Of a stretch of 64,000 nt of DNA, positions 45,901 through 51,900 are shown piece by piece. The position numbers are program-made. Source of the DNA: Escherichia coli O157:H7 (lineage in GTDB: Bacteria > Pseudomonadota > Gammaproteobacteria > Enterobacterales > Enterobacteriaceae); the NCBI RefSeq assembly GCF_013167455.1, contig NZ_CP038328.1. The stretch is one strand, 5' to 3'. Each line of letters opens with the position of its first letter. The first letter of the stretch is position 1.

Positions 45901-48900
45901 TTGAAGCCAGTTCACTTTCGACAACGCCAGGATTTACGCAGGTCACACGGATTTTCGAGCTTTCCTGCCGTAAGCCATCAGAAATAGCCCGTACTGCAAA
46001 TTTTGATGCACAATAGACTGCGCCTGTGGGCACAACAGAAAGGGCACCAATAGAACCAAGATTGATTATCTGACCGGAACCCTGTGCTTCCATCACCGGA
46101 AGTACAGCGCCAATTCCCCACAGTACACCTTTGATATTCACGTCAATAGTGAGCGCCCATTCATCTTGTTTTCCTGCTGCAAGCGGTGAAAGCGGCATAA
46201 CGCCCGCATTATTGATAAGAACATCAACTCGCCCCCAGCTATCCAGCGCTGCTTGCACGAAATCGGCCATGGACTGTCGGTCTGTGACATCCAACTCCCG
46301 CGCTTTAGCAATTCCTCCTGCGCGGCAGATTTCGGTTGCAATGGCTTCGATACGCTCAACTCTGCGTGCTCCCAGTAAAACCTTTGCACCTGTCATTCCA
46401 AGCTCTCTGGCAATACCTTCCCCAATACCACTTGATGCGCCGGTAATTAATATGACCTTATCCATTACGTTCTCCTTCAAATGTGTTCGGAGAGAGAATA
46501 GAACTTTATGATTGGTTCCAGTATCCTGCTTTCAATGTACTCAGTGGTTAGCGGCATTAAACAATGAAAATCGATCTTAATCTTTTACCCATTTTTATCG
46601 CGGTAGCAGAAGAGAGTAATTTTAGTAAAGCCGCCGCACGGCTGGGCGTTACCCGTTCAGCGGTCAGTCAGGGAATAAGACGCCTTGAAGATGCATTCGG
46701 GACAATGCTTGTAATGCGGACCACGCGCTCAGTTAATTTGACAGAAGCGGGAGAACGGCTGCATAAATCGCTGTCATTACCTTTATCCGGTATTGAGGCA
46801 GCGTTCGAAGAGATGGTTTCTGACCATGTGCCACGCGGACTTCTCAGAATCGCGGTGACGTCAATAGCTGAAGAATTTCTTTCAGGTCCGCTAATCGCTT
46901 CGTTTGCAGCAGCCAATCCAGCCGTTACGCTTGATATTGTTGTCACGGATGAGGAATTCGATATCGTGGCCGCAGGTTACGATGCTGGCGTAAGGCTCGG
47001 AGAGGTCATTGAAAAAGACATGATTGCTGTGCCCCTTACCGGCAGGCAGCGTGAAATGGTCGTTGCCTCTCCCTCCTATCTCGCAGCCAACAGCACACCT
47101 GTTCATCCGCGTGAACTTGTGAATCATAAGTGTATCGGCTGGCGTCAGTCCCCGGAGGTTGCGCCTTATCGCTGGCCATTTGAAGAAAACGGGAGAGCTT
47201 TCGACCTTGCGATTGAACCGCAGATTACGACTAATGATCTGCGTCTGATGTTGAGGCTGGCTCTTGCCGGCGGAGGAATAACAATTGCCACTCAGGAAAC
47301 TTTCAGGCCGTATATTGAAAGCGGTAAGCTTGTATCTCTGCTTGATGACTTTCTTCCACAATTTCCGGGCTTCTATCTGTATTTCCCACAGCGTCGCAAT
47401 ATTGCACCAAAGCTCCGCGCTCTGATTGACCACGTTAAGGAATGGCGGCAGCAATTGGCTTAAATGTCTGCACCTGCATTGCCTGATGTCAGAACAGTAT
47501 TTTGATTAATTGCCAGGGTTACAATGGCACAAATGCGGCACAGGAGGAAACGTGGTGTATTTAAATATGGGGTAACTACTTGATTTAAATGGTGCGATAA
47601 TAGGAACCAATAATCGCCACCAACACAATGATTTTAATACATAAATTAAAATAGAAGATTTAAACTACACACACCCCTATACACATTGGTGAAGGCGTTC
47701 GCTTTCCGCGCATTCTCAAGGCAGAAAAAACTTTTTTTGGGGGAAAACTGTTCATACTACTCATTGTGTTTTTTTTCATTAATATTCAAAAAGATATGAA
47801 ATTAACGATTGATAAGAAGTGAACACTTTACTGTTCACCTTGACTGATTAATAAGTGCATAAAAACCTAATTTTTGAGCACGGAAGGTATTTGTTCCTTA
47901 CCCCATTTTTTCTCTTTAGTCCAGTACAACAAAAAATGCGCCCAACAGAAAACTGTTTTGAATTTAAATGCAATCGCTTTGTAGTGATTGTAACGTAAGT
48001 TGATTTGATGGGTGCGATTTTGTTTAGCGATAATGGTATGTTGTAAAAATCATTTCGTTGCAATAAAATTGCATCGCTACATTTTATAGACAATATCAAT
48101 TAAATTTTAATACTCATTATTAATTTTGAGGCTAACAAGTGACTAGTTATTCAAACTTTTCCAATCAAATAAAAGAAACCATCAATAATAAATTCGATCA
48201 TGAAATTCATGATTGGGACATTATAAAAAACTCAATCACAACTTTAATAAATAAAAATATCCATGGTGCAGGTAGAAATATCGTTGATTTTATAGATTTA
48301 GGTAACTGGGATTTTATTTCAAACTTTTCCTTTGATGACTCTACAAGAAGACTTGAATTAGAGTGGCACCCCAATGATAAATTCCATATATATATTGAGT
48401 CCGTTGTGTTTGTCGAGTTTAATGACACTATATATGCTTTCTTAAAGGGATACTATCACAATCAGTTATCTCTAAATAGAATATATAATACAAAATGCTC
48501 TTCATGTTCATTTGAAAACTCAGGTTCTTATATGGTAGACGTTTATAGAACGGTTAAAAGAGTAAATGAGACAATCCAGACCCCAAATATAAATTGCTAT
48601 ACTACATGTATTTTAACAAGGCCCGCAAATGGTCATGTTACATCTACAGGCTTCTCACGAAACCTCATGGATGCGATAAATATTTCATTAGCAGAGCACA
48701 AAATAGCCTCTTTACATAATGAAGTCATGAGTATTGAGGAATATGATCGTGATTCTTTACAAGAGAAAGGAAATACTGCCAGGAGATATTTAGAATATAT
48801 TCTCATGCTTGTTAATATTCGTATAATGCATTTAAACAACGTTCAATACCAAGAGCAAATGCTAGGTAGTTTAGTTTCTGTTATTGAGGCTCTGGACTAT

Positions 48901-51900
48901 GAACCATTAATGAAAAATGATGTTGAAATTACAAAGGACATCCTTAATGCTTGCAGCCACCACGGGGGGGTTAGAATTGAAAAGAAAGATGTAATTTTTT
49001 CTTTGGAAGTTATTGAAAACTTAATTAAAGCCATAAAGAAAACCGACATAAATAAATTACAACTCGATGGGATGTTTAAATCAATTCAAAAATAAACATC
49101 ATCTAACAATGAATTAGATGCATTTTCCGCTGACGCCTTAGCATATAACTTTTAAATTTTATCGATATATATTTTGAGATAATTTCCTGTAGCGGATTTA
49201 AGACCGGCACAGCCGGTCTTAGGTCAGTTATTTCGCTGCAAACTCATCGCATTTTGGCAACCAGTCAGCATTGCTTTCCTCTCTTAGGGCCAGATTAGTC
49301 TGCATTCCTTGATTGGTCCGTCGTTTCTCATACTGCAGCCCATATTCCTTGAGCATTAACGGTAGCCCCTTGCCAAACATGGTCAGACTGAGCGTATTTT
49401 TATAGCCGTTAGCCTCCATGTAGACCAGATAGGCATGGTAGAGGTAAGTTCGAGGCTGACGTGGAACAATATTAGCGTTCCCCATAAACATGCCCGTGGT
49501 GTCAGGTAGGACCTCAAGGTAGCCGCAAAAATCAAAAGCTGAATCAGCATCACGTTTGATGGTGAGCGCTTCATCGGAGTTCTGCTGTGACTGAAGCAAT
49601 GTCCTGGCACTCATTGGGTCGCTGAAACGCTGCATAAGCTGGCGAACAATCACCGCTAGCTCACTGGCAATTTTCTCTTTGAGCTGGGTATCGCGTTCCT
49701 CCGGGGCTATCTGGTCGGGGAAATGCAGGATCACCCTTCGGCGTGAAACTCCACCACTACGATCAGTGAAGCGCATCGGATTATTGTTCACAGCCAGGAT
49801 GACCGCCGGGATGTGGGTTGAATAGGCGTTCTGATATTTGGGATCAACGGATACCGCATCGCCGCCAGTGATGGCTTTTAGTCCGGCCCCGTCACCGCTC
49901 CACTTTTCCTGGTCGGGAAGTCGAATCAGTGAAAAACCTATTAACGCAGCTCGTTCTCTTGGCGACTCAAGCATTTCAATGGTTGCCGAGGTCGCGTTAT
50001 CTTCACCCGCCAGCATGGTTGCTATTTCAGCAAGAATACTCTTTCCACTTCCGCCAGGGCCAGTGACCTCCAGAAACAGCTGCCAGTCATAACGGTTAGC
50101 CAGCACCATAAACAATGCAGCCAGAATAATGTCCCGTTTTTCAGGATTAAAACCTGCGGCACGATCCAGCCAGCGCCAGAATGCCGGGGCATGGGTTTCC
50201 AGTGACTCACCGTCAACGGGCTGCGTGTAATCCACCTCGCACAGCGTACGTAACCAGTGCTTCTTATCGTGCGGGCTGAACAATCCTGTCCGGGTATCGA
50301 GCACACCGTTGCGAAATCCGATAAGTTGCCGCGCCGGATTCTGCTGTTGCGGAACGATCAGTTTGAGGGTTTCCACGAGAGACGCAATTTTCGCGGATGA
50401 AAAAGGTGCGTCGAGGCGCTGAAACAGCGCAGCGACATCACGGGCAAAATCGGCGTAATAGATAACTTTCCAGGCCCCCGCCTCATAGCGTGAAAGGAGC
50501 TGCCCGTTCGGGTCTACTGCCAGTGAATTTTTATAGTGATCCACTACCCTCTGCGCTTTTTCGCTGACGCTCAGCGCGGTAAATTCAGCTTCGCTCATTG
50601 TGTCGAAGGGGCTGGCAACAGCTGGTTTTATTACTTCATGAATTGCATGCCGGGTGGCTTCTTCGCCGTTTTGCGTGAATGCATCGTTCCAGTCACCAAA
50701 CACAGGCGGGAGCGCCATTGTGCAATTGCAGGCCCCGGTAACAGCTGCGCCCCTTGTTTGCCCCGCACCGTTGAGATCGCGGTCAGCAGCAATAATTATC
50801 TGGTGCGTTGGGTACTCACTGCAGGCAATGCTCGCCAGGGAAAGGAAATTGACGGACGAAAAGGCCACCATGACAGCATCGCCAGTCAGATAGTTGATAG
50901 TAAGTGCGGTGGCATATCCTTCCGCTATCCAGAGCCGTTTGGCTGCTTTGGCAGTACCTTCAACCAGGTAAAAGGCATTCTTAACCTGACCGCCTTTAAG
51001 GAAGCATTTGCCCCCATTAGCGTTGATTAACTGCAGATTTACCAGCTCTCCATCTGCATACAATGGAACGACAAGATCTCCCGCGCGAAATGCCACACCA
51101 CCGACTTTATGCATAGCGGTTAATTCCCGGCAAGGCAGTGCAGGAAACCCTTTACTCGTCAGATAGGCATTGCCAGTGGTCTGGCGGGACTTATCAAACA
51201 AACGGGCAGCCAGCACTGCTGCAGCTTTTCTCCCGTCCTCTTTTTCAGGAGAACCAGATTCAAGCATTCCCTGAGATACTGGCAGCAGGTTTCCGATAAT
51301 GCCGTTTATTCTGTCTGCCGCTTCACTAATGCCTACATCCAGTACTTTACTTACAAGCGCCAGGCCATCACCTGCCCCGCACTGGTTACAGAACCACGTT
51401 CCCCGCCCTTCCTGGTCATCAAATCGAAAGCGGTCTTTCCCGGCACAGACCGGGCAGGGCTGGTGCCGATTTTTCAGTACATTTACGCCCAGCGCAGGTA
51501 AAATTCTTGACCAGTGACCCCGAGCTGCTTTCTCAGCCTGGCTAACTTTCATTCCTGACATTGTGCGGCCCTCCTTAGTGCAGCGCTGGTTTGTTGAGGT
51601 GACGGGAACAAAGTTCATCCATGACCGTCATTCCGAGCAGTGAGAGAACCGGACAGGCTTTAAGCGGCCCCGACTCCATCAGATCCGAAAGCAACGCGCA
51701 GGCAATTTCCAGCCCTCTTTGCTGCCCATGCTGGCGCAGATAGAACCCTTCCAGCTCGCGGGCTATGGCATCTTCAAGTTCAGCGAGCGTCAGGCCGGAA
51801 TAACGTTCCTGATGATTGCTTAGAGCCAGCCAGGCACAGGCAACGGCACGGCGATACAGAGCGGCACGAAGTGCCAGAAGAGATTCACAGCATATCATCA

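Follow-up and report, generated by a model that had tools for sequence, protein, structure and literature searches.

The described systems closest to the gene analysed here are HEPN-domain defence proteins. RAZR (PD-T7-4) joins a zinc finger to a DUF4145 HEPN ribonuclease (RNase) and is activated by phage ring proteins (PMC13017515), and ApeA is a stand-alone HEPN anticodon nuclease activated by deoxydinucleotides, its non-HEPN domains forming the ligand pocket that switches on tRNA cleavage (bioRxiv 10.64898/2026.01.26.701840). DARNA is switched on by single-stranded DNA that the phage single-stranded DNA-binding protein presents, and cleaves tRNA anticodon loops; HepS, a HEPN defence protein of the Gifsy-1 prophage, was solved with the lambda J tail tip bound (PDB 9oik); and Ishtar, a monogenic anti-plasmid system, combines a HEPN domain with a beta-rich domain of unknown function and has reported homologues in P4 satellites and integrons (bioRxiv 10.64898/2026.07.06.735840). 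Here we describe ORF318, an open reading frame (ORF) at 48139-49095 of a 64,000-nucleotide stretch of Escherichia coli O157:H7 DNA (assembly GCF_013167455.1, contig NZ_CP038328.1; hereafter the window). The gene lies in the P4-like satellite prophage Sp2, and had been singled out from the sequence (the original prediction) as low-GC cargo, possibly a stand-alone defence or abortive-infection gene.

We read ORF318 as a stand-alone protein in which a sensor is joined to a HEPN domain and which serves in defence or abortive infection. We hold this reading, with its presumed RNase activity, N-terminal sensing, oligomerisation and abortive outcome, to be somewhat likelier right than wrong. It extrapolates from the HEPN fold predicted for the C-terminal domain and from the hotspot and cargo context of the gene, so that the defence role put forward in the original prediction is supported, though not proven. 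The kind of system, a single-protein sensor plus HEPN, is already known; the N-terminal domain and the arginine-less HEPN site would be new to it. ORF318 is best placed in the HEPN superfamily as an undescribed family, set apart by an N-terminal domain of its own and by a motif that lacks the arginine.

The gene itself is as first described. It comprises 318 codons from a GTG start, encodes 318 residues and is annotated at identical coordinates in RefSeq (WP_000205213.1, ECs_0304 of strain Sakai, "hypothetical protein"). A GAGG Shine-Dalgarno sequence precedes the GTG, whose use as start codon is supported by the N-termini of homologues, since these coincide with that of ORF318 within 1-2 residues in the alignment. 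The gene also differs from its neighbours in composition, with 31% GC (29% at third codon positions) where alpha and the LysR gene of the host have 51-54%, and is convergent with alpha on the opposite strand. The protein had been called rich in asparagine, isoleucine and lysine; this holds for isoleucine (11%) and asparagine (9.7%) but not for lysine (only 6.3%).

Low GC, a non-ATG start and the absence of database annotation would also befit AT-rich junk DNA in which an ORF is decaying or has arisen spuriously, an outcome that the original prediction had allowed for. Homologues were found, however, by word-indexed and exhaustive protein searches, which recovered a family extending from 100% down to ~20% identity, with 60 cluster representatives at E<=1e-3 and full-length members in many genera. 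Comparison with an 80%-identical Citrobacter homologue gave a nonsynonymous divergence (dN) of 0.135 with saturated synonymous sites (pS 0.71), placing the ratio of nonsynonymous to synonymous divergence (dN/dS) well under 0.1, and AlphaFold2, supplied with a 36-sequence alignment, returned a confident two-domain model (mean predicted local distance difference test score, pLDDT, 91.2; predicted template modelling score, pTM, 0.87). Given the low dN/dS, the depth of the family and the confident model, ORF318 is a real gene under purifying selection. The invariant motifs described below add to this, and we count the spurious-ORF explanation, to which we give next to no credence, as refuted.

Of the 5,426 complete E. 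coli genomes searched, 306 carry ORF318 intact; these belong mostly to O157:H7, together with O55:H7. The segment 47400-49300 is 100% identical to many O157:H7 chromosomes. A variant copy (IMG/VR contig L032, 905-1853; E. coli 08-3914, hit H60, 97.2%) stands beside a 99.7%-identical alpha and matches only in pieces with shifted and overlapping coordinates. At least one lineage therefore seems to have a disrupted ORF318.

Domain architecture and the putative HEPN site

The N-terminal alpha/beta domain of the model, presumed to be sensory or regulatory, consists of two helices followed by a large antiparallel sheet, and reaches a pLDDT of 95 when modelled alone. Its near-invariant residues (D50, F51, D53, W57, D58 and W76) fall in and after a VDFxDxxNWD signature in the 36 aligned sequences. 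Profile searches of PDB sequences with the whole family and with this domain alone returned chance matches only, and the domain appears to be specific to the ORF318 family and unclassified, with a conserved acidic and aromatic patch.

The C-terminal domain is predicted to consist of two alpha-hairpins that form a four-helix bundle, helices 2 and 3 being separated by an insert; this is the HEPN fold, an RNase fold that occurs in many abortive-infection proteins. Its best PDB match is 7ae2, the HepT toxin of a HEPN-MNT pair, and lower-ranked structure matches include Csm6, the abortive-infection protein AbiA and the prophage defence protein HepS. Foldseek against AFDB50 moreover yielded whole-length matches (E 1e-12 to 1e-20, template modelling score 0.72-0.82, 15-24% identity) to proteins of ~320 residues named "DUF4145 domain-containing" or "HEPN domain-containing", from Paenibacillus, Sporocytophaga, Synechocystis (Sll1401), Blautia, Clostridium and Bacillus. 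As these whole-length matches come from such distant taxa, the two-domain architecture is, on the modelled structures, old and widespread. The statement that the protein has no recognisable motif stands for Pfam, NCBIfam and PADLOC, with two weak PHROGs matches only (E 0.004 and 0.05), but does not stand for its fold and conserved residues.

Those residues lie in three motifs of the C-terminal domain, GNtxRRxxExxL(K/M) (N212, R215, E219), LGxL at 242-245 and LNxCSH(H/D)xG (N270, S273, H274, G277). In the 36-sequence alignment N181, R215, E219, H274 and G277 are invariant, and N212, N270 and S273 nearly so; another 28 members, more distant ones, show these motifs too, giving a family HEPN signature of GNxxRRxxExxLK, LGDL and NxxSH(D/H)xG. 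The HEPN Ex3[KR] motif, as defined by Anantharaman et al. 2013 (PMC3710099), is present: E219 is invariant and position 223 is Lys in 25/36 sequences, with Met or Ile in the enterobacterial clade, and the E-x3-K pair is invariant in the 28 further members. When aligned by hhalign with the Ishtar HEPN domain, which we used as a guide to register and not as evidence of homology (probability 1.3%, not significant), N270..H274 falls on RNxxEH and N212/R215-R216 on N.KR. The invariant R215, E219 and H274, with the near-invariant N270 and S273, sit at the positions of HEPN active sites. Nucleotides 48958-48960 form the codon of H274.

In the mechanism we propose, ORF318 would be a two-domain cytoplasmic protein that is inactive in uninfected cells. 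Its N-terminal domain would sense a phage-derived protein, nucleic acid or small molecule, and sensing would reposition the HEPN domains, characterised relatives being dimers or higher oligomers. The HEPN site, made up of H274, N270 and S273 together with R215 and E219 from the preceding helix, would then cut RNA, the target most likely being tRNA anticodon loops or other RNAs of translation. Translation would halt and the infection would abort, protecting the lysogen and its satellite from phages that the satellite cannot exploit. RAZR, ApeA and DARNA have been shown by experiment to work on this principle, and the structure of HepS with the lambda J tail tip points in that direction as well.

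Several observations weigh against this reading. In the place of the canonical Rx4-6H motif, the family keeps the His, and also the polar residue beside the Arg position, and lacks the Arg: position 269, five residues before H274 and the site of the canonical Arg in the Ishtar register, is Leu in ORF318; none of the 36 sequences has Arg there, most having Leu or some other aliphatic residue, and an Arg at -7 from H274 occurs in 5/36 only. Rx4-6H has been lost, wholly or in part, mainly in non-catalytic HEPN domains fused to nucleotidyltransferases (NTases), although HEPN families with a conserved His and no Arg are on record (c2405 and PaREP1; both points from PMC3710099). ORF318 also matched no model in Pfam, NCBIfam or PADLOC, and none of the 64 members tested (36+28) had an informative match in these libraries; PF13643 (DUF4145) went unmatched by ORF318 at E<=10 and by the 64 members at E<=0.1; the profile link to DUF4145/DUF3644-type HEPN domains, as represented by Ishtar, was the non-significant one given above; and literature searches by accessions and locus tags returned no paper on ORF318. 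Lastly, the gene is near-identical across 305 genomes of the O157:H7/O55:H7 lineage, which presumably reflects the recent origin of that lineage and so says little about selection.

The missing Arg, and the typical loss of this residue in NTase-fused HEPN domains, are the main grounds for caution over catalysis and form the basis of the chief rival explanation, that ORF318 is an NTase-type protein whose HEPN-like domain binds substrate and is not an RNase. It might then be an ANT/KNTase-like enzyme, a HalB-like signal synthase or a fused MNT-HEPN protein, with the N-terminal domain doing the chemistry or modifying the HEPN domain. The two-domain outline weakly resembles enzymes made of an NTase and a helical domain, and no clear NTase signature (of the pol-beta type, hG[GS] ... 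[DE]h[DE]h in an alpha-beta-alpha-beta core) was recognised. We consider this explanation unlikely. The HepT match is a point of likeness to HEPN-MNT pairs and KNTase-type fusions, but ORF318 has no separate MNT gene and lacks the tyrosine of RX4HXY, having SHHGG or SHDSG around H274. A further proposal, in our estimate an outside chance, is that the family represents a new single-chain design, in which the unclassified alpha/beta domain, possibly a degenerate pol-beta-type NTase fold with a D50/D53/D58/W57/W76 pocket, controls the arginine-less HEPN domain, with the catalytic Arg supplied by a neighbouring helix (R215 in RRxxE) and not by Rx4-6H. One version of this design would be an MNT-HEPN-like module, fused and self-regulating; the other would be an RNase that senses nucleotides and has a rewired active site.

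Comparison with described HEPN systems

Set beside the described systems, ORF318, as a predicted sensor-plus-HEPN protein, differs in domain layout from RAZR, ApeA, DARNA and Ishtar. RAZR has a Cys4 zinc-ribbon N-terminus and keeps R146 and H154, whereas ORF318 has an alpha/beta N-terminus without a zinc ribbon and no canonical Arg; its only CxxC (C120-C123) is not conserved, and PADLOC, PD-T7-4 included, gave no match. On domain layout and the lack of PADLOC matches we rejected identity with RAZR and with DARNA. The likeness to HepS and DARNA is of a more general kind, all three being single HEPN proteins, and the two described ones being defences, that of HepS prophage-encoded.

In its fold, and presumably in its working, ORF318 is like the DUF4145-type HEPN defence proteins (PF13643; PMC3710099), a label that its whole-length structural neighbours carry. 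Shared features are an N..(K/R)R..E helix, a later N-x3-H, an insert between the helix hairpins and, in DUF4145 proteins of conflict systems, fusion to varied N-terminal domains. The differences are that PF13643 does not match the family, that the Arg of Rx4-6H is Leu, and that the ORF318 N-terminal domain is not among the listed fusion partners.

A hint of ApeA came from the UniRef cluster of one distant member, whose name mentions an ApeA N-terminal domain. ApeA, though, has ~580 residues in three mostly helical domains with a catalytic Arg (R502), against 318 residues and a beta-rich N-terminal domain in ORF318, and membership was rejected because this architecture differs from that in the cryo-electron microscopy description of ApeA. 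PADLOC, which we take to include ApeA models, was searched at E<=1 with ORF318 and at E<=10 with ten distant members, nine of which matched nothing and one of which (P0038) had a weak JetB match only. Library searches with 20 distant and 10 longer members gave nothing usable, and the ORF318 protein is not listed in the supplements of two relevant preprints. Weak matches to AAA_13, of the PrrC/RloC family, appeared in 3/36 members (best E 9.5e-4); PrrC/RloC was rejected from the model only, the 165-residue N-terminal domain not being an ABC ATPase.

Distribution of the family and its genomic contexts

Members of the ORF318 family occur in Citrobacter, Providencia, Pantoea, Pectobacterium, Proteus, Serratia, Enterobacter, Salmonella, Klebsiella, Aeromonas and Paenibacillus, and in metagenomes. 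None was found in 50,697 GenBank phage genomes, plasmids nearly lack the family, and among GTDB species-representative genomes it is rare (4 loci only). The gene has 29-35% GC in every host examined, within flanking loci (17-21 kb each) of 35-62% GC, and nucleotide homology between O157 and Citrobacter starts and stops exactly at the ends of the ORF. With homology so confined and GC so constant across hosts, ORF318 looks, at the sequence level, like a mobile single-gene unit.

Extended versions of the family exist among its members (distant members P0036, P0059, P0062, P0069, P0070, P0076 and P0077, and also P0050 and P0055). Some have ~190 extra residues at the N-terminus with weak DUF3775 matches, others ~270 extra residues at the C-terminus without a Pfam match, and in these proteins the N-terminal domain and HEPN core are kept as one unit.

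The contexts of the homologues are varied. A 33%-identical homologue occupies the main P2 defence hotspot, the interval from gpA to the portal gene, in a P2-like prophage; immediately downstream of a P4-type integrase is one of 45%, with a three-gene Y4jQ/receiver-domain cluster as its neighbour; one of 58% is in a lambdoid prophage and, on a second contig, beside a methylase/histidine-kinase-like cluster; and in Proteus, Serratia and Aeromonas homologues form one- or two-gene islets between core genes. The 80% homologue belongs to an integrative and conjugative element, where it sits between an N6/N4 methyltransferase and ArdC, near a type I restriction-modification system.

This last position bears on another explanation, that ORF318 is a HEPN barrier to plasmids or other mobile elements and not to phages. 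The model for it is Ishtar, which as a single-gene HEPN (DUF4145/DUF3644) protein with a beta-rich domain clears RP4 and of which homologues are reported in P4 satellites and integrons, and the company of ArdC and a methyltransferase on a conjugative element would suit such a role. However, the domain order is reversed, with the HEPN domain of Ishtar N-terminal and its canonical RNxxEH kept, Ishtar proteins are shorter (170-260 residues), the hhalign comparison with 16 Ishtar sequences gave the same low probability, and WP_000205213 is not in the table of Ishtar homologues (Table S3). ORF318 was therefore not assigned to Ishtar. The P2 and P4 hotspot positions favour competition between phages, and we regard an anti-plasmid role as decidedly unlikely.

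In none of the contexts read was there a conserved neighbour, and the neighbours were dissimilar to one another when compared by BLASTP, which is why "stand-alone", as the original prediction had it, fits ORF318. In Pantoea, a 351-residue gene without a Pfam match lies on the same strand and ends 27 nt before the homologue (L006 8919-9974, L007 8060-9115); it may be a clade-specific operon partner, and has no counterpart in the other contexts. Beside the same homologue in L007 (1054-7052) stand genes for a DNA methylase, a 1012-residue HATPase_c_3/HEF_HK protein and a Response_reg_2 protein, a cluster that looks like a separate defence-type system on the same island.

The neighbourhood also speaks to whether ORF318 could be a toxin-like addiction or stress module stabilising the satellite or island, or a factor in satellite-helper interference, in either case conferring no immunity against unrelated phages. 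A type II toxin-antitoxin pair would have a conserved adjacent antitoxin gene, and none was found, DNA homology ending at the ORF. As for an upstream RNA antitoxin or hidden partner, flank homology and Rfam searches beside the gene were negative, and repeat and promoter scans gave nothing above chance. Sister satellites do without ORF318, and a toxin that stood alone and was always active could not persist. We judge this explanation very improbable.

The cargo slot of satellite Sp2

Coordinates in the window are collected in the table below. The Sakai annotation names the surrounding 12.9 kb (about 47606-60492 of the window) "prophage Sp2, P4-like phage", in which alpA-like, icd-like and DUF5375 genes precede alpha. 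Strain TOE3 has a related P4-like element, a sister of Sp2, at this chromosomal site, and there homology to the Sp2 backbone runs to 47841 and resumes at 49200 with ~20 nt between, leaving the slot empty. In strains 65COLEC and LR-21-1 the slot holds instead a 365-residue gene that PADLOC matches to SIR2. The element of Ecol_AZ147, located elsewhere in the chromosome beside fecE and IS30, has an AbiJ-NTD4 gene ~0.9 kb beyond alpha, with slot edges unmapped. The region from alpha to the attachment site (att) thus has variable content between conserved backbone flanks, as P4 accessory hotspots do, and the primase-att slot has been described as a minor P4 defence hotspot (bioRxiv 10.64898/2026.02.27.708500). 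Because the TOE3 element lacks the 1.36-kb insert and slot content varies among sisters, ORF318 is, by sequence comparison, a cargo gene of Sp2, as had been proposed.

Table. Features of Sp2 and ORF318, in window coordinates.
Feature	Position	Strand	Remarks
attR-like degenerate copy of a tRNA 3' end (TGGTGCGATAATAGGAACC)	47580..47605	+	Direct copy of the partial tRNA at 60478-60525; Sakai end of Sp2
GTGAACA...TGTTCACC inverted pair	47820..47842		Backbone DNA immediately left of the cassette
Cargo cassette, 1.36 kb	47842..49199		Missing in the sister P4-like element of TOE3
GAGG Shine-Dalgarno sequence	48128..48131	+	7 nt 5' of the GTG; direct sequence reading
ORF318 (ECs_0304, WP_000205213.1)	48139..49095	+	ORF call, annotation, homologues, purifying selection; stop codon included
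N-terminal alpha/beta domain, residues 1-165	48139..48633	+	Model and alignment; presumed sensor/regulatory
C-terminal HEPN-fold domain, residues 170-318	48646..49092	+	All-helical; model, structure matches, alignment
GC-rich, terminator-like hairpin	49195..49225	+	Between ORF318 and alpha; spans the right cassette edge
P4 alpha-type primase-helicase	49228..51618	-	Backbone gene bounding the cargo slot
P4 immunity RNA, C4 antisense RNA	52365-52452	-	Rfam, 84 bits, above gathering score
isrK	52521-52598	-	Rfam, 72 bits, above gathering score
sid, psu, delta	53864-55442		Sp2
Low-GC hotspot, the main P4 hotspot between delta and int	55852-59017	-	Sp2
int	59131-60363	-	Sp2
Partial tRNA, 3' part, adjoining int	60478-60525		Repeat match with 47580-47605

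The 365-residue gene (3789-4886 in both L020 and L021) is annotated as 'hypothetical'. Its PADLOC SIR2 matches are weak (E about 4e-9), and on this sequence evidence it is another unannotated single-gene defence candidate of the same slot.

ORF318 had been placed between the end of alpha and an iteron- or att-like region. The att-like part of this description stands, in the form of the tRNA-end copy at the Sp2 boundary; the iteron part does not. The inverted pair left of the cassette resembles the alpha-binding octamer of P4 (P4 crr/ori), but a single exact TGTTCACC octamer lies near ORF318 (47832-47839) and the window as a whole contains two, no more than chance would give, so the iteron idea was rejected. 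A second degenerate att- or tRNA-end-like copy (TTGATTTGATGGGTGCGAT...GCGATAATGG), resembling the first, occurs at 48000-48033 inside the cassette, whose left edge is ~160 nt away, and precedes ORF318 by 105 nt; it could be due to chance or be a trace of the arrival of the cassette, for instance by integrase-mediated capture.

At the other end of Sp2, only the 3' part of a tRNA adjoins int, followed at 60540-61233 by an IS3-family fragment and a remnant of prophage Sp1, and ARAGORN found no tRNA in the window. Sp2 is therefore a member of a tandem series of integrated elements, and the intact tRNA target lies outside the window. The C4 antisense RNA and isrK fall inside mechanically listed ORFs (185 residues at 52116-52673, for example), and the ORFs overlapping these RNAs are probably not all protein-coding. 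Outside Sp2, a second low-GC patch (44600-45800, 35-40% GC) between host LysR and short-chain dehydrogenase/reductase (SDR) genes contains only a 92-residue ORF (ECs_0307) and a ykgR fragment.

The Lamassu system in the main hotspot of Sp2 appears to be broken. Two ORFs (58712-59017 and 58122-58739) make up LmuA and three (57039-57698, 56418-57008 and 55852-56418) LmuB, the LmuB portion being listed as a pseudogene in Sakai, and LmuC is intact (57664-58137). With the Lamassu system apparently broken, ORF318 may be the sole working defence cargo of Sp2.

No current defence-annotation library detects ORF318, and the gene provides a concrete, unannotated example from the little-studied P4 hotspot between primase and att. 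If the reading of ORF318 as a sensor-plus-HEPN defence protein is true, it would bring a sensor domain of a new type, and a HEPN site without the canonical Arg, to the set formed by RAZR, ApeA, DARNA and HepS, the current best models for how phage recognition is coupled to RNA cleavage, and the family would offer a natural test of which residues HEPN chemistry needs. As possibly the only working defence of Sp2, ORF318 may also be relevant to the phage susceptibility of O157:H7 and to its phage-based control.

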